DNA of 64,000 bases, taken from the IMG/VR virus record IMGVR_UViG_3300029319_000007. One strand, 5' to 3'. Of this stretch, positions 21,433 through 53,740 are shown piece by piece (position 1 is the first letter of the stretch; every line of letters starts with the position of its first letter). A program made the position numbers and the translations under genes. The notes beneath the pieces were generated by a model. The model made no database searches, was not told the DNA's origin, and saw only the letters and a list, made by a program, of their open reading frames with translations. The DNA is from a virus.

Positions 21433-21440
21433 TATTTATA
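21433..21440 (-). promoter_or_regulatory. Late promoter TATAAATA, 5 nt from ATG
   Basis: TATAAATA-GTATT-ATG. Confidence 0.75.
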
Positions 21441-47456: not shown

Positions 47457-49307
47457 CTACGAAGCATAACTTGATGTTGTTGTATAACCTATACCTGATG
47501 TAGTATCAAAAGTATCTGCGTTTACACTTACAGTTGTATTAGTTTCATCTATCGCTAATATTTGATTACGAACTGGAACTAAGTCAACTGAATTAGGTAT
47601 AGTTGTTAATCTTATGTCAGTTGATGTTGCACCATCTACATTTGAAACAGTTGTAATAAACAAAGAGTTTAGTGTGACTGTACCGTTTGTGTAATCAATA
47701 GTGCCTTGTGTATTGTTTGTATATGTTCTTGTTTGTCCTACAAGATAATACAATCTTACATTACCTGCACCATCATCATCTAAAAAATATTCATTAGTTG
47801 TATCACCATTTATTTTAAAACCTGATGAAACTAAAATACCACCTGCACTTGCATTGTGTGCTGAATGTGGGTTGTAAAATGCATTATTAAATTTAATTGT
47901 ATAAGTTGTTGCGCCAGTTGTTGTTGCAGTAAATGACTTATGCATTTTGACAGTTGTAATATTTGATAAGATTGAAGTATCTACTTTGTTTATTGTCTCA
48001 ATAAATTTTGAGTGTCTAAACACATTATCAAATTGTTGTAAGTTGTTATTATTAAAATTAGTTATAGCAGTAGATACTAGTGCCTTGATAGTATCAGCAG
48101 ATCGTGTTGTTGTTTTAGCGTCATACTTAACATTTACATTTAATTGAATAGATGTAGTTTCAGGATCTTGTATGATAGGTGTAATACTTGCCACATTGAA
48201 ATCTTTTAATTGTGTAATAATATCTGTTTTAGTTGCCTCAGTTAATGTTGCACCTGCAACAGGATTAATTGAAATATATACACGACCATAAACAGGCGTG
48301 TCATTATCTTCACCGCCCCATACAGAAACAGATTTTGCATTTGTATAAATTTGTTTTACTTTACTTTGATAATCTTTAGGTGTGACTGTTCTATTCTGAG
48401 AAGCATATTGTCGTGGTGCATTAAATCGAATACTATCAGGTGTTTCAGGTTGAGCACCGTTTGCTGAATTAGTTGCAGTAGTTATAGTGACATTAGAAAA
48501 ACCACCTATGTTGCCTGATAAACTAAATGAACTTGCACCATTACTTTCTTGTGCGTTTGTGACTATGTAAGATAGTGTCACAATATTACCAGTTGATAAA
48601 GCAGCACCGAGAACTCCGTCACCAAACTTAACTTCGTATTGTTGATCTTCAGCACCTTCTAGATAATAAACTTTTGATGATGATGTAATATCTGCTAGAT
48701 CAGTTGCAAGTGTGTATGTAGATGTTGTTGTATCACCTGAACTATTTTGTACAGTCACTAATAAAGTAGTTGTGTCTGCTAAATTATTTTTTATTAAGAA
48801 TCTTTGATCTGCGTCAGTAGTATCTACTGTGTATTTGTTTGAAATAAGTGTGCCTTCATAAACTTCTAAATTAGAAAAAGTATAAACACCATCAACTGGC
48901 GAAATTGTTGTTGCGTCTTTAACAATGTAGTTATAAGATACACCATCGACTGTAGTTGTAAAAGTTGTGCCACGAGCGGCGGTCAAAGTTGAACCGGTTG
49001 CATTGTTAACTACAACATTTAAATATGCAACAGGTGATGTTGCACTTCTTGGTGTATACCCAACATGTTTTGCATGTGATACAATACTGTTTCTTAAATC
49101 AGCACTATCTAAAAACATTTCGTTAGCAAGAACATTTGCATAGACAGCATTGTAATGTGTGTTATAGGCAAGTACATCTAATATAGTTGACATACCTGAA
49201 CCTTCAAAATCATAATCTGTAAATTGATCTTGTTGTCTTAGAAAAGTTTTTAAATTACTTTTGATTGTATCAAAATCTAACTCTGTGACATTAATTCTTT
49301 TTGGCAT
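47457..49307 (-). CDS. gp6: Baseplate wedge protein gp6
   Basis: LDFD.IK.NL..FL..Q..FTDYDFEGS, LAYNTHY, FGDGVLG, QNR.VT..DY. Confidence 0.96.
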   Translation of the reverse strand: MPKRINVTELDFDTIKSNLKTFLRQQDQFTDYDFEGSGMSTILDVLAYNTHYNAVYANVLANEMFLDSADLRNSIVSHAKHVGYTPRSATSPVAYLNVVVNNATGSTLTAARGTTFTTTVDGVSYNYIVKDATTISPVDGVYTFSNLEVYEGTLISNKYTVDTTDADQRFLIKNNLADTTTLLVTVQNSSGDTTTSTYTLATDLADITSSSKVYYLEGAEDQQYEVKFGDGVLGAALSTGNIVTLSYIVTNAQESNGASSFSLSGNIGGFSNVTITTATNSANGAQPETPDSIRFNAPRQYASQNRTVTPKDYQSKVKQIYTNAKSVSVWGGEDNDTPVYGRVYISINPVAGATLTEATKTDIITQLKDFNVASITPIIQDPETTSIQLNVNVKYDAKTTTRSADTIKALVSTAITNFNNNNLQQFDNVFRHSKFIETINKVDTSILSNITTVKMHKSFTATTTGATTYTIKFNNAFYNPHSAHNASAGGILVSSGFKINGDTTNEYFLDDDGAGNVRLYYLVGQTRTYTNNTQGTIDYTNGTVTLNSLFITTVSNVDGATSTDIRLTTIPNSVDLVPVRNQILAIDETNTTVSVNADTFDTTSGIGYTTTSSYAS

Positions 49308-49750
49308 TATCTACTTCTTTCTAACATTGTTTGTAAAGTTATTAATTCACCTGGTACATTGACAACATAAAAACTAATTGTGACTTCGTAAGAATTAACA
49401 TCAGGTTGTGCCGAAGCAATAACTGACACTAGTCTAGCACGAGGTTCAAAATTTTCTATACACTCTGCAATCGTTCTTTGTAAAACATTTGCAGTTATAG
49501 GATTCATAGGTTGAAAGAGCATTGCTCTTACACTAGAACCTATCTCAGGATGAAAAGGTCTTTCATAATGATTTGTAAGAATAAGATTTCTCACAGACTG
49601 TTTTACAGCGTCAACATCTTTCTTAACAATAACATCACCTGACGCATTATTCTTTTCAAATGACAATGATACATCTCTGTAAAGTCTAGATGATCTAGAA
49701 CTTGCATTTGTTCTTGAAGCGTCTGTATATCCTGATTGAAGTATTGCCAT
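49307..49750 (-). CDS. gp25: Baseplate wedge subunit gp25
   Basis: AVKQSVRNLILT...ERPF.P.IGS, FEPR. Confidence 0.94.
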   Translation of the reverse strand: MAILQSGYTDASRTNASSRSSRLYRDVSLSFEKNNASGDVIVKKDVDAVKQSVRNLILTNHYERPFHPEIGSSVRAMLFQPMNPITANVLQRTIAECIENFEPRARLVSVIASAQPDVNSYEVTISFYVVNVPGELITLQTMLERSR

Positions 49751-49756
49751 GTAAAC

Positions 49757-49764
49757 TATTTATA
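49757..49764 (-). promoter_or_regulatory. Late promoter TATAAATA, 6 nt from the gp25 ATG
   Basis: TATAAATA-GTTTAC-ATG. Confidence 0.75.
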
Positions 49765-49766
49765 TA

Positions 49767-50030
49767 CTAACCTGCAAAAACATTAGAAGAACCTGATATA
49801 GTGTGACCACATGAAGCGGCGTCACCTGATCTACAAACACCTTTACCATTTGCAAATACAGTAGATGACTTGCCTACCATGGGTGGCGTAGGTGAGTGAG
49901 GTGAAACACCATGAGAGGCGACTTTATCACCTACACGAACTACACCTGATCCGTTTGCGTTGACATTACCACTACCTTCTATCGCAACACCACCAGCGAT
50001 GTCAACACCGTTTCGTGAAACGCCAGGCAT
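49767..50030 (-). CDS. PAAR spike-tip protein (gp5.4-like)
   Basis: R.GD repeats, V.ANG, His/His/Cys metal ligands (SHG..PH, SCGH), GSSNVFAG. Confidence 0.9.
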   Translation of the reverse strand: MPGVSRNGVDIAGGVAIEGSGNVNANGSGVVRVGDKVASHGVSPHSPTPPMVGKSSTVFANGKGVCRSGDAASCGHTISGSSNVFAG

Positions 50031-50176
50031 TATCTACTGTTGCCTTGCCCAACACCTCTTTTGAATTGTCTTCGTTTGTGTTTGTTCTTTGGTTTTGTTC
50101 TAGAACTATCACCTATAGATGTGCGTTTCTTTACGCCTCTCTCATAGTTATTGTTTATATTAAGTCCCTTTGCCAT
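50030..50176 (-). CDS. Small basic protein, 48 aa (not in ORF track)
   Basis: MAKGLNINNNYERGVKKRTSIGDSSRTKPKNKHKRRQFKRGVGQGNSR; TAATG overlaps at both ends. Confidence 0.75.
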   Translation of the reverse strand: MAKGLNINNNYERGVKKRTSIGDSSRTKPKNKHKRRQFKRGVGQGNSR

Positions 50177-50271
50177 TATGCCTCATGTTCACAGTTTGCA
50201 CAACCGCATGAACCACAAGAACCACCATTACTACAATGACACCCATGTCCGCAGTTTTTACATGTACCCAT
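50176..50271 (-). CDS. Metallothionein-like peptide, 31 aa (not in ORF track)
   Basis: MGTCKNCGHGCHCSNGGSCGSCGCANCEHEA, 8 Cys and 3 His; AAGGA SD; TAATG coupling at both ends. Confidence 0.75.
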   Translation of the reverse strand: MGTCKNCGHGCHCSNGGSCGSCGCANCEHEA

Positions 50272-50402
50272 TACTTTCCTTTTTTCTTTGTAGTCTTCTT
50301 TTTCTTTTTGACTACCTTTTTCTTTGTTGTTTCTTTCTTCTTAGGTGGTAGTACATTCTCTGATTTACCCCAACCTGACCATAATTTACTAAAAAATCCC
50401 AT
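50271..50402 (-). CDS. Lys-rich peptide, 43 aa (not in ORF track)
   Basis: MGFFSKLWSGWGKSENVLPPKKKETTKKKVVKKKKKTTKKKGK; GGAG SD. Confidence 0.7.
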   Translation of the reverse strand: MGFFSKLWSGWGKSENVLPPKKKETTKKKVVKKKKKTTKKKGK

Positions 50403-50495: not shown

Positions 50496-50524
50496 TTGAC
50501 TTTCTACTATTTATAGTGTACCGT
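50496..50524 (+). promoter_or_regulatory. Candidate sigma70-type early promoter overlapping a minus-strand late box (50508-50515)
   Basis: TTGACT-17 nt-TACCGT with TG before the -10; TATAAATA on the - strand inside the spacer. Confidence 0.55.
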
Positions 50525-50555: not shown

Positions 50556-50831
50556 ATGAAACTTAAATTTAACAATCTACCTGAGATCCTAGAATGGATC
50601 AGAGATCCTCAACACAAAGAACATTTGTTCTTATTGCAAGCAGCGATTGCTGAAGCAAAAGGTTCTAAGTCCTCTAAGTCTCAATTTAATGTTGGCGATA
50701 AAGTAATCTTTGGTAGACCTAATGGTCGTAAACATCATGGTTTTATTGTCAAAAAGAATCCTGCGAAAGCAGTTGTCGATTGTGCCGGTTCTAAGTGGCG
50801 TGTACCTTACTCTCTAATGGAGGCAGCGTAA
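50556..50831 (+). CDS. Hypothetical protein with an SH3-like C-terminal barrel
   Basis: FNVGDKV.F......G.IVK.NP.KA.V.....WRVP; GAAAGGA SD. Confidence 0.6.
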   Translation: MKLKFNNLPEILEWIRDPQHKEHLFLLQAAIAEAKGSKSSKSQFNVGDKVIFGRPNGRKHHGFIVKKNPAKAVVDCAGSKWRVPYSLMEAA

Positions 50832-50926
50832 TGAAAAAACAAAAATTTAAATATGTCTTCAATCAACAATCTACTATTATTATTTTATTATTAATATTAG
50901 TATTACAAGGATTTGAGGTACTATAA
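50831..50926 (+). CDS. Small membrane peptide, 31 aa
   Basis: MKKQKFKYVFNQQSTIIILLLILVLQGFEVL; TAATG coupling at both ends. Confidence 0.55.
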   Translation: MKKQKFKYVFNQQSTIIILLLILVLQGFEVL

Positions 50927-51114
50927 TGAATGTACATATAGAATTTGCTGTCACCCCAACACCAGGACCTGTTTGGGGTGAACTTGATATGGTTCACATA
51001 TCAATACCAAAAAGAAAATTCAAAACTCTAAAAGATGTTTATGATAAGTGGTATAAGAAGACCGGTAATAAAGCAAAAAAAATTAAAATGATTAAGGAGA
51101 AAGTTATATTATGA
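50926..51114 (+). CDS. Hypothetical protein
   Basis: 62 aa, GAGG SD, coupled. Confidence 0.55.
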   Translation: MNVHIEFAVTPTPGPVWGELDMVHISIPKRKFKTLKDVYDKWYKKTGNKAKKIKMIKEKVIL

Positions 51115-51290
51115 CATACGAAGAAATGAATGATAAGATTACCAAATTACTTGTTCACGCTGAAGGCGAAATGAATAAGATAATTGAAGACTATAATGAA
51201 AACAATGAAGACGGTGATGAAGTTGATACCGTTGATCTATCAAGTAAGTTTTCACCATTACTAGATTATGTTGAAGACTACTCACAATAA
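51111..51290 (+). CDS. Small acidic protein, 59 aa
   Basis: MTYEEMNDK...DYVEDYSQ, 17 D/E; AAGGAG SD; ATGA overlap. Confidence 0.6.
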   Translation: MTYEEMNDKITKLLVHAEGEMNKIIEDYNENNEDGDEVDTVDLSSKFSPLLDYVEDYSQ

Positions 51291-51307
51291 TTAGAAAGGT
51301 ATATATT

Positions 51308-51538
51308 ATGATAATTAAAATTGGCGATAATGTTTCTGTTAATCAAAGAGGATCAATTCTTCCTAGAGAAGGAGTGATTACAGGTATATCTATTGGTCTT
51401 ACTAAATCTGATCCTGCAGGTGAGTTAGGTATCAATCTAAAAGAATATGATACTGAAATGAATTACCTAGGTTCTATTGATTACAAAACTGATAGTGGTG
51501 AAAACTATTGGGCATACTTCTCACAAATAGAATGTTAG
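51308..51538 (+). CDS. Hypothetical protein (SH3-like)
   Basis: IKIGD.V...REG.IT.I...WAY; GAAAGG SD. Confidence 0.6.
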   Translation: MIIKIGDNVSVNQRGSILPREGVITGISIGLTKSDPAGELGINLKEYDTEMNYLGSIDYKTDSGENYWAYFSQIEC

Positions 51539-51678
51539 AAAAAATTTTAAAGTGTAAAATTAAATATGATAAACTTGCATTGAGAGAACCTCGTACAGGA
51601 CAGCAAGTTTATGACCGTATCGTTTGGGAAAGATTAAGATCAATCCTGATTAAACGATACGGTCGATTAGATGATTAA
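51532..51678 (+). CDS. Hypothetical protein, 48 aa
   Basis: MLEKILKCKIKYDKLALREPRTGQQVYDRIVWERLRSILIKRYGRLDD. Confidence 0.5.
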   Translation: MLEKILKCKIKYDKLALREPRTGQQVYDRIVWERLRSILIKRYGRLDD

Positions 51679-51878
51679 CCTCTTACTTCTTCTGAAGTAG
51701 TAGGCACTTCAATGTCGCCAACATCTCCTGTTGGCATTTCAATTGTGATTTTTGGTACAGGCACCTCGTCAATGACTTGTAGTGTCTGTTCACCGTAATA
51801 ATGTCCTAACCAAAAAGCACCTATTACGATTAAAACATAAAGTAATCGTTTGAAGCGGTTCTTAGTTATATCTCTCAT
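51675..51878 (-). CDS. Small single-TM membrane protein
   Basis: Basic N-terminus, hydrophobic LLYVLIVIGAFWLG. Confidence 0.55.
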   Translation of the reverse strand: MRDITKNRFKRLLYVLIVIGAFWLGHYYGEQTLQVIDEVPVPKITIEMPTGDVGDIEVPTTSEEVRG

Positions 51879-51881
51879 GTT

Positions 51882-52040
51882 CTATGCCTTCCATCTTTTC
51901 CAAAGATTAGCACCTACCCAAGCGATTAAACCCCACTTGACTAATGCCATTGGTGCAAGAATACCTGTAAACAGGCAGATGATTAACAGAATAAGTCCGT
52001 AATCTTTCCATGCGTCAATATTTTTTAACCATTTATCCAT
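51882..52040 (-). CDS. Small two-TM membrane protein, 52 aa
   Basis: MDKWLKNIDAWKDYGLILLIICLFTGILAPMALVKWGLIAWVGANLWKRWKA; AAGGAG SD. Confidence 0.6.
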   Translation of the reverse strand: MDKWLKNIDAWKDYGLILLIICLFTGILAPMALVKWGLIAWVGANLWKRWKA

Positions 52041-52069
52041 AAGAATTTCTCCTTTTGTTATATGTTTAT

Positions 52070-52936
52070 TTAGAATGTTAATTTAGTTCCTACTGAGTAG
52101 TGATCTAAATCTGTACCAGTATTCACATCATCATGCTGATATTCAGCATAGACGCTTAAGTTATCTGATACACCGTGAGATAGACCCACAGTATAATACA
52201 CTCCAGTTCCTTCTTTATCTCCGTAACCTACGGTGACATCTTTCCAACCTACTGTTGCTTCCATACCTGAAAGGTCTGTAGCAGCATCTTTGATTGTGTA
52301 AGTTGAAGCGATAGTTAAATCACCGAGATTTGTGGATGCACCTGCACCCCAATAAGAGATATCGTTTACAACATCATCAGCGTATCCAACAGCGACATCA
52401 ATGCCTTGTAAAGAATGAGAGTAAGAAACTTCCCATTCGTCCATGCCATCTTCGCCAGTTGAACCGTCAACGATAGTCATTGCTTCTAGTCCACCCAAAG
52501 CAAACTTTGCAGTATTACTTGAACGGTCTGCATACTTCCATATGGCATTACTACCATAGACTTCAAAGTTAGCAGTCTTGTTTACATTACCAAATGGGTG
52601 AGATTGTCTACCTACAGATAATGCCGCACCGCCAGAATTTTCTAAACCGACATATGCAAGACGACTATCAAAGGTATTCGAACCACCATCATCAACATCA
52701 AGACCAACTTCTAACTTTGCAAAACCAGTAATCGTATCTCCTTCAACGCCTAAGTCTATAAACTCTACGCCTACTTTTGATCCGTTATTTTCTAGTTTAC
52801 TATATGCTGTGCCAGAAGAATTTTGATCATGTGATAATTTATAATTGAAAGTACCATACGGTATGATCTCAGTTGCCATTGCACCATAAGTGAAAAACAG
52901 CATACCAATTGCCGTAAGGGTAATTAATCTTAACAT
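52070..52936 (-). CDS. Gram-negative outer-membrane porin
   Basis: Signal peptide, SKVG, KLE.G.D, SRLAYVGL...GRQ..P, C-terminal YSVGTKLTF (BamA-type signal). Confidence 0.88.
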   Translation of the reverse strand: MLRLITLTAIGMLFFTYGAMATEIIPYGTFNYKLSHDQNSSGTAYSKLENNGSKVGVEFIDLGVEGDTITGFAKLEVGLDVDDGGSNTFDSRLAYVGLENSGGAALSVGRQSHPFGNVNKTANFEVYGSNAIWKYADRSSNTAKFALGGLEAMTIVDGSTGEDGMDEWEVSYSHSLQGIDVAVGYADDVVNDISYWGAGASTNLGDLTIASTYTIKDAATDLSGMEATVGWKDVTVGYGDKEGTGVYYTVGLSHGVSDNLSVYAEYQHDDVNTGTDLDHYSVGTKLTF

Positions 52937-53028
52937 GTATTCTCCTTTGTAAAATATGATTATAAATCTATAATCGAACCCAGGACGGGTTTTAATGTAT
53001 TCCTCGAACTTTATTCATATCATATTAT

Positions 53029-53412
53029 TTAGTCAATTCGAAACCATTGGTCGTTCACAATCGTATCTATTTCTTTTCGACCTTCTTCGCTGATCCAGTC
53101 AGAAACAATATAGGCACTAATATGTGTATAACCTTGGCGTTTCGCCCATATGATACGCCGACCCCCACAATGATATTTTCGCAATACACCATTATTTTTT
53201 AGATCACGAACTATCACAGGATTTAACAGACCTTTCTCCGATAAATCCGAAAATAATTCTTTATACGGTATATCGTATTCGTCTGCATACTCTGTCCACT
53301 CATTCACAGGTACATTGTCCCACTTGTATGTCAATGTTGATAAATCTGCAATGATATGCTTATGAGGGAAGTTTACATTTTTCGCTGTGAGAATATTTTT
53401 GCCAGTAGTCAT
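53029..53412 (-). CDS. ParB/Srx-like domain protein
   Basis: L...L...GLLNPVIV....GGRR.IWAK..GYTHI.AY. Confidence 0.7.
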   Translation of the reverse strand: MTTGKNILTAKNVNFPHKHIIADLSTLTYKWDNVPVNEWTEYADEYDIPYKELFSDLSEKGLLNPVIVRDLKNNGVLRKYHCGGRRIIWAKRQGYTHISAYIVSDWISEEGRKEIDTIVNDQWFRID

Positions 53413-53740
53413 TTGAATTTGTATAAAGAAAAACTTTTTCCCAAGACGCTTGATCTACGATATGATAACAATCGATATGAGTATACCCTCTTTGTTTGGC
53501 ATACCATACTCTTTGATGACCGACAGATACTTCATAACCATTATACGATACAATGATAGGATGTTGCATGCCGTGTTGATCGAGTTCTTTCATCAAACAC
53601 TCTAAACGAAAGTGTGCTTCTTTGTCCCGATTGATTCTTCGATAGTCTATGAAGTTGCCGAGTTCTCTGATACTATAGACTTTGTGATATTCGGGAAACT
53701 CTATGTGTTTTGCGGTAAGGATTTTTTGAAAGGTTGGCAT
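53360..53740 (-). CDS. ParB/Srx-like domain protein (paralog)
   Basis: GMQHPIIV....VGHQRVWYAKQRGYTHIDCY. Confidence 0.72.
   Translation of the reverse strand: MPTFQKILTAKHIEFPEYHKVYSIRELGNFIDYRRINRDKEAHFRLECLMKELDQHGMQHPIIVSYNGYEVSVGHQRVWYAKQRGYTHIDCYHIVDQASWEKVFLYTNSNDYWQKYSHSEKCKLPS

Follow-up and report, generated by a model that had tools for sequence, protein, structure and literature searches.

The window, a 64,000-nucleotide stretch of the IMG/VR virus record IMGVR_UViG_3300029319_000007, belongs to a T4-like pelagimyophage whose nearest isolates are HTVC008M, Mosig and Melnitz (Kyanoviridae). On its minus strand, the genes run in the order gp4, gp48, gp53, a tail protein, gp5, an island of 4 kb, a TATAAATA box, three small ORFs and the gene of the PAAR spike-tip protein, followed by a second TATAAATA box, gp25 and gp6. 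The features around the small ORFs are listed in the direction of reading:

50508-50515, minus strand: putative T4-type late promoter box TATAAATA, 105 nt 5' of the Lys-rich ORF
50271-50402, minus strand: Lys-rich 43-aa peptide with an aromatic N-terminus, a poly-Lys tail and a net charge of about +15
50176-50271, minus strand: 31-aa Cys8His3 peptide, the minimised member of a family with the frame C-x2-C-x-H-x2-H-C ... C-x2-C-x-C-x2-C
50030-50176, minus strand: basic 48-aa peptide in which the core K-R-T-S-I-G ... N-K-x-K-R-R ... G-Q-G is kept, net charge about +13
49767-50030, minus strand: PAAR spike-tip protein, 87 aa (PF05488, E 2e-9; phrog_281, E 5e-20)
49757-49764, minus strand: second TATAAATA box, after the PAAR stop and just ahead of gp25
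49307-49750, minus strand: gp25-like baseplate wedge protein or sheath initiator (PF04965, E 1e-13; phrog_261, E 6e-46)
47457-49307, minus strand: gp6-like baseplate wedge protein (phrog_219, E 6e-186)

The layout described in the first-pass annotation was reproduced. The Lys-rich, Cys-rich and basic ORFs and PAAR are chained through TAATG, with a one-base stop/start overlap at all three junctions, the middle ORF encodes a 31-aa peptide that includes 8 Cys and 3 His, and a perfect TATAAATA lies upstream of the small ORFs at the distance listed. The junction of gp25 and gp6 overlaps in the TAATG manner too, so such overlaps are the usual packing of this genome and give no special evidence for a functional link. 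The raw count of TATAAATA in the window, 9 copies against 8.6 expected by chance, is not what makes the box meaningful; its strand, position and conservation are, because all 9 copies lie on the coding strand and all 9 in intergenic DNA, 5-105 nt 5' of a gene start, and because 52 of 69 related loci have the box no more than 250 nt before the Lys-rich ORF. Its copy ahead of the small ORFs qualifies as a putative T4-type late promoter, and the late expression proposed for these ORFs is probable. The boxes at 21433, 22845, 27227 and 49757 (minus strand) end just 5-6 nt before the next ATG; as T4-type late promoters, they would leave next to no leader. Between gp5 and the late operon, the 4-kb island (window 50556-51538 on the plus strand and 51675-53740 on the minus strand) holds several small plus-strand ORFs, a porin-like gene whose name comes from HTVC008M, small TM proteins and two overlapping ParB-like fragments.

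Conservation of the small ORFs was assessed in viral contigs fetched through gp25 alone, 80 in number, 71 of which carried enough upstream DNA. The Cys-rich ORF occupied the same slot in 70 of these 71 loci, and the remaining one held a different Cys-rich ORF. Among 37 distinct DNA versions of its 26-codon core, pN/pS was 0.16, and the variable sites at codon positions 1, 2 and 3 numbered 8, 10 and 24. All 11 ligand residues (Cys and His) were invariant despite alternation of TGT with TGC and of CAT with CAC. The ORFs are far beyond chance, and the 31-codon Cys-rich frame is a real, selected gene; conservation of the ORF and of its Cys pattern, either of which could have failed the earlier proposal, holds for both. 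The Lys-rich and basic ORFs, which are conserved in related loci with pN/pS values of 0.39 and 0.29, are also under purifying selection. PAAR itself gave a value of 0.60 in related loci, which is inflated by its allele classes. In myophages infecting SAR11, the most abundant bacteria of the sea, the tail-tip operon carries the Cys-rich gene as a fixed member.

The 31-aa peptide has no significant match in Pfam, PHROGs or the PDB sequences, and USP30, raised by the PDB sequence profile search, was rejected, as that search gave chance matches only. A profile search of 1.84 billion protein representatives recovered 55 relatives at E<1e-3, and a further search brought 311 relative clusters at 90% identity, none with a Pfam domain and all named 'hypothetical' bar one odd JGI name. 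The exception, a 53-aa member (P0005, from L167-L170) named 'NADPH-dependent glutamate synthase beta subunit-like oxidoreductase', almost certainly owes its name to spurious transfer from a Cys-rich motif. Annotation pipelines thus mostly miss the gene or label it hypothetical, and the family comprises hundreds of clusters in marine viromes. Among prokaryotes, sampled as one genome per species for 185,579 species, just 3 MAG contigs matched, which makes the family essentially phage-only. A tblastn search with the 31-aa peptide and with a long-form relative against 50,697 phage records returned no match; since a profile search found the family gene in HTVC008M (E 1e-15) and Mosig (E 1e-13), this null result probably stems from filtering of low-complexity sequence and from the shortness of the query. 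A feature search in the ESM Atlas yielded unnamed clusters with scores of at most 0.85. In the literature, no paper was found on the family or on Cys-rich peptides beside phage PAAR, and in the DeepMetagenome paper phages appear merely as a benchmark.

Typical relatives are 45-60 aa long and share 9 fixed ligands in the frame C-x2-C-x-H-x2-H-C ... C-x2-C-x-C-x2-C, the fixed non-ligand residues N, G, G-x-P-L-x-K, I-E-V and R, and a middle part of 15-30 residues that includes hydrophobic and aromatic residues. The window peptide has the same ligand frame, with the hairpin down to five residues and two ligands added. PAAR-linked and unlinked members, groups that are clades and not independent samples, differ in median length (31 aa vs 51 aa), in Cys+His fraction (0.35 vs 0.19) and in the median number of aromatics (0 vs 3), and C replaces S before H-C in 34 of 37 PAAR-linked forms. 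Judged from its sequence, the 31-aa peptide is a minimised form of an uncatalogued and unannotated phage-restricted family of tiny, putatively metal-binding proteins, a family that is new and of a known general kind, that of small Cys/His metal-binding proteins. Apparent fusion proteins in public protein collections were considered as Rosetta-stone evidence and rejected, both those of the family with the basic peptide (P0001) or with a second Cys-rich family (P0054, P0082 and P0123) and those with a paralogue (P0058 and others). The three examined (P0001, P0054 and P0058, from L263-L265) translate solely when TAG is read as Q, so these 'fusions' are gene-caller read-through of adjacent in-frame ORFs and count as adjacency only.

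Metal binding by the 31-aa peptide is very likely, given its metallothionein-like composition and the strictly conserved Cys/His pattern. The AlphaFold model of a long form contains a β-hairpin with strands at residues 19-25 and 36-42 (pLDDT 70), and the model of the window form has almost no secondary structure, with 5 residues between its two halves. The frame reads as a zinc-ribbon or cross-brace-like knot that would hold two metal ions, presumably Zn, probably at two tetrahedral sites formed by ligand groups 1+3 and 2+4. The holo-peptide would be net negative, as against its partners of about +15 and +13. Zinc ribbon and rubredoxin-knuckle mini-proteins (PF13248, PF13240; ribosomal L28; the lasso domain of thymidine kinase) resemble the long forms in that two C-x2-C knuckles flank a β-hairpin, a modelled one in the long forms. 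The scores of this likeness reach no family threshold: Pfam Zn_ribbon_1 and Zn_ribbon_3 gave sub-threshold E values of about 0.02 in 1-2 of 33 long forms, and the VIA likenesses to zinc ribbons and FYVE ran from Z 2.3 to 3.3, the best being the 3.3 to L28 and none being significant. In contrast to the mini-proteins, the phage family has five more conserved ligands (H, H, C and C, C), which imply a second metal site, and the hairpin is gone from the window form. Cross-braced two-zinc modules (FYVE, RING and PHD) offer another comparison, in that the four serial ligand pairs of the phage family could form two interleaved sites. FYVE was among the best fold matches, with non-significant Z values of 2.2-2.9; unlike it, the phage family has no basic lipid-binding motif, is half the size and occurs in phages only. 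Foldseek returned nothing at E<1, a fold search with the 31-aa model gave no match at Z of 2 or more, and a BFVD search brought up members of the family itself and generic zinc ribbons, and nothing else. If the knot is read correctly, the family shows how a folded zinc mini-domain was whittled down to a peptide of which one-third is metal ligands.

The first-pass annotation had regarded the peptide as a metallothionein-like molecule, and a phage metallothionein or metallochaperone would buffer or capture scarce Zn (or Fe) late and deliver it to virion proteins such as PAAR. The composition of the window peptide agrees with the metallothionein part of this proposal. With 26% Cys, 10% His, zero aromatics, three CxxC and two CxC, it falls within an operational compositional definition of metallothioneins, and the unlinked long forms fall outside it. 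What stood of the claim was this composition and the conserved Cys/His pattern; membership of a described metallothionein family did not. The window peptide has no match to the described families (Pfam Metallothio_*, PF02069) at E values up to 10, none of these families was found among the 33 long forms, and the best match among relatives, to Metallothio_5, had an E value of 0.033 in 3 of 18, below threshold. The bacterial metallothioneins SmtA and BmtA (PF02069) are comparable to the window peptide in their small size; its 11 Cys/His ligands equal in number the Cys9His2 set of SmtA, which also has a zinc-finger-like core. The window gene differs from SmtA/BmtA in having no sequence match, in its Cys spacing, in not being host-derived and in lying behind a putative late structural promoter box instead of a metal-regulated promoter.

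The lineage-specific changes of the peptide also bear on this proposal. PAAR-linked forms gained ligands, including the C in place of S noted above, and lost the hairpin, a different Cys-rich family takes the slot in L073, L183 and L184, and the Cys-rich peptide and PAAR are the sole constant members of the upstream operon across the HTVC008M-like and Mosig-like lineages; the HTVC008M operon has an extra 89-aa gene, and the Mosig-like operon has a lipoprotein instead of the Lys-rich peptide and no basic peptide. Loss of the hairpin, gained ligands and replacement by another Cys-rich family suggest that metal-binding capacity itself is selected, which fits a metallothionein-like reading and a structural knot equally well. 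A metal store is, however, harder to reconcile with relatives that are folded, contain aromatics and keep fixed non-ligand residues, with a phage-only family that includes no host-derived metal-homeostasis gene, and with a putative late structural promoter and a low-copy baseplate operon, an odd design for a metal buffer.

A dedicated PAAR metallochaperone would be expected to co-occur with PAAR. The window PAAR scores 37.9 bits against PF05488 (cut-off 27), and its likely metal ligands in the alignment are H40, H45, C74 and H76, which are kept within a class, H76 being invariant across classes. Linkage was counted in 67 family loci that were fetched through the peptide itself and had at least 1.2 kb downstream, with counts that are not phylogenetically independent. 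PAAR, gp25 or gp6 lay nearby in 19 of these 67, all 19 being HTVC008M-like or Mosig-like, and the other 48 had none of them; the tie to PAAR exists only within pelagimyophages. Homologues unlinked to PAAR are the very outcome that the first-pass annotation had named in advance as speaking against the chaperone role. Melnitz, whose kinship to the window phage equals that of Mosig, provided a second line of evidence. Its PAAR is 68% identical to that of HTVC008M, yet no family member was found anywhere in the Melnitz genome by a search in which HTVC008M and Mosig served as positive controls. In this Methylophilales phage (L182, MZ577097.1 79415-80738), gp5 is directly followed by PAAR, and the gap between PAAR and gp25 holds a 51-aa ORF and a nuclease-like gene, with no Cys-rich, Lys-rich or basic peptides.

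The PAAR proteins of the relatives fall into at least 4 classes (86, 87, 91 and 97-98 aa) that share only about 40% identity with each other (L003-L082). Identical Cys-rich peptides pair with different PAAR classes, and the peptide was not found to co-vary with the PAAR allele. Upstream of gp25 in the same loci, the flanking genes are nearly identical and the PAAR classes are shuffled among them, a pattern suggestive of frequent exchange of spike-tip alleles. A chaperone function dedicated to PAAR is not supported, and nothing specific links the peptide to metal supply for PAAR, for the cupredoxin-like fibre or for Fe oxygenases, the recipients that had been suggested. The metallothionein or metallochaperone reading as a whole is rather unlikely. 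In T6SS, accessory genes beside PAAR/VgrG encode adaptors or chaperones, the Tvp complexes among them (PMC13373197). These accessories are like the phage gene in that a small gene lies beside PAAR and could aid spike assembly; they differ in that the phage family mostly occurs without PAAR.

Outside the PAAR-linked loci, family members adjoin genes of the tail tube (phrog_45), a virion structural protein (phrog_13138), endolysins, an Rz-like spanin, terminase and DUF1353 (phrog_1158, with the PHROGs name 'tail assembly chaperone'), and some lie in metabolic-gene islands of cyanophage-like contigs. The context is variable and dominated by late, virion and lysis modules. The lysis neighbours raise the possibility of an envelope or lysis accessory, in which the Lys-rich product would be a cationic membrane-active peptide and the Cys-rich one would modulate it or a lysozyme. 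Endolysin genes (L123, L151 and L156), a lysozyme domain (L157) and an Rz-like spanin (L178) lie beside PAAR-less members, as do small lipoproteins and small TM proteins including DUF6356, and the N-terminus of the Lys-rich peptide is aromatic and amphipathic. The Cys-rich peptide nevertheless has no signal peptide, its neighbours in the window are baseplate genes, and the adjacency varies and may merely reflect islands of small late genes; such a role is very unlikely.

The second Cys-rich family, unrelated to the first, has the core C-x-C-D-P-C-x-C, a length of 27-36 aa and 9-10 Cys. In the pelagimyophage loci L073, L183 and L184, the Lys-rich peptide is followed by a second-family Cys-rich peptide and then directly by PAAR, with no basic peptide (L073:136-629 in the first of these loci). 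Linkage to PAAR was seen in 3 of 77 second-family loci, and the family is otherwise widespread. Of 80 second-family loci (L183-L262; e.g. L245:2165 and L255:3758-4144), 29 have an IscU-like Fe-S scaffold gene on the same strand and no more than 2.5 kb away, against 0 of 160 first-family loci; many of these second-family loci may be one phage lineage. This synteny bears on the idea that the Cys/His frame binds Fe in a rubredoxin-like manner, or a cluster, rather than Zn. The first knuckle of the window family is of the C-x2-C-G type of rubredoxins and zinc ribbons, and Fe-S assembly genes lie near some members, namely SufBD in L180 and an IscA-like gene in L176. However, IscU is absent from the surroundings of the first family in the loci counted, the Rieske, CDGSH and ferredoxin motifs were ruled out as candidates by the ligand spacing, and Pfam 'FeS' gave an E value of 0.8 in 1 of 33 members. 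An iron or iron-sulfur peptide is highly improbable.

In the PAAR-less loci L160, L192, L255-257 and L260, the gene right after a Cys-rich peptide of one or the other family encodes a homologue of the basic peptide, and in phages without PAAR further peptides with poly-Lys tails come before Cys-rich ones. This recurrence indicates that the recurrent unit is a Cys-rich knot between two polycations and not a knot with PAAR. One consequence could be a small zinc protein directed at nucleic acid or at the host, which would form a nucleocapsid-like or protamine-like set with the two polybasic peptides, acting in DNA or RNA condensation, end protection or co-injection, or else would bind a host protein. 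The position of a putative zinc-knot gene between those of peptides charged about +15 and +13, the recurrence of the basic family beside Cys-rich peptides elsewhere and the weak fold likeness to ribosomal zinc-ribbon proteins all point this way. Retroviral nucleocapsid CCHC zinc knuckles likewise combine a small zinc knot with highly basic sequence; in the phage the basic parts are separate gene products, and the ligand spacing differs. On the other side, the Cys-rich peptide is acidic and not basic, has no DNA-binding motif and gave no significant sequence or fold match, and host-takeover genes are usually early, whereas the peptide gene lies behind a putative late promoter box. A nucleic-acid- or host-directed function is distinctly unlikely.

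These considerations lead to a different proposal, put forward tentatively and with somewhat less than an even chance, that the peptide is a structural metal knot which serves virion assembly or delivery together with polycationic late peptides. The frame of the family carries nine ligands that flank a modelled β-hairpin and would form a zinc-ribbon or cross-brace-like knot with two metal ions. In the window lineage, the hairpin was cut to five residues and two ligands were added, which gave rise to the metallothionein-like composition. A T4-type late transcript would then carry the Cys-rich peptide together with the Lys-rich peptide, the basic peptide and PAAR. The product would be a small, strongly anionic structural metal knot, neither a metal store nor a dedicated PAAR metallochaperone, and with its polycationic partners it might act as a virion-assembly accessory or as a tail-tip component that is carried in the virion or ejected. 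The structural knot is preferred because ligands and non-ligand residues are fixed, because a hairpin is modelled and because the late and virion context recurs without PAAR; the partnership with polycations is proposed because basic homologues follow Cys-rich peptides of two unrelated families without PAAR. Several observations count against the knot: the models are moderately confident (pLDDT about 70) and have no significant structural match, a different Cys-rich family fills the slot in L073, L183 and L184, and PAAR-linked forms are richer in ligands and free of aromatics. Gene neighbourhood within islands of small phage genes is, moreover, a weak guide to function.

A wider and doubtful version of the structural-knot proposal is a mobile three-peptide module in marine phages, composed of a poly-Lys peptide, a Cys-rich knot of either family and a basic peptide of the K-R-T-S-I-G...N-K-H-K type. 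Here the anionic metal-thiolate peptide might chaperone, neutralise or metal-load the polycationic virion peptides. The spike-tip operon of SAR11 myophages would have captured this module, with the knot minimised to a metallothionein-like peptide of 28-31 residues.

If the peptide belongs to the virion or to its assembly, it would be an unrecognised component of T4-like baseplates, and if it buffers metal, it would open a viral route into the trace-metal economy of the zinc-poor and iron-poor ocean. The question has been narrowed in that the polybasic peptides are no less candidate partners than PAAR is. A recurring trio was also seen in further contigs of marine myophages (L091, L105, L107, L117, L120, L130, L178 and others), in which DUF1353 (phrog_1158) lies upstream of the family peptide and a small membrane protein (DUF6356), a lipoprotein or a second Cys-rich peptide lies downstream, sometimes with an adjacent Rz-like spanin or endolysin.
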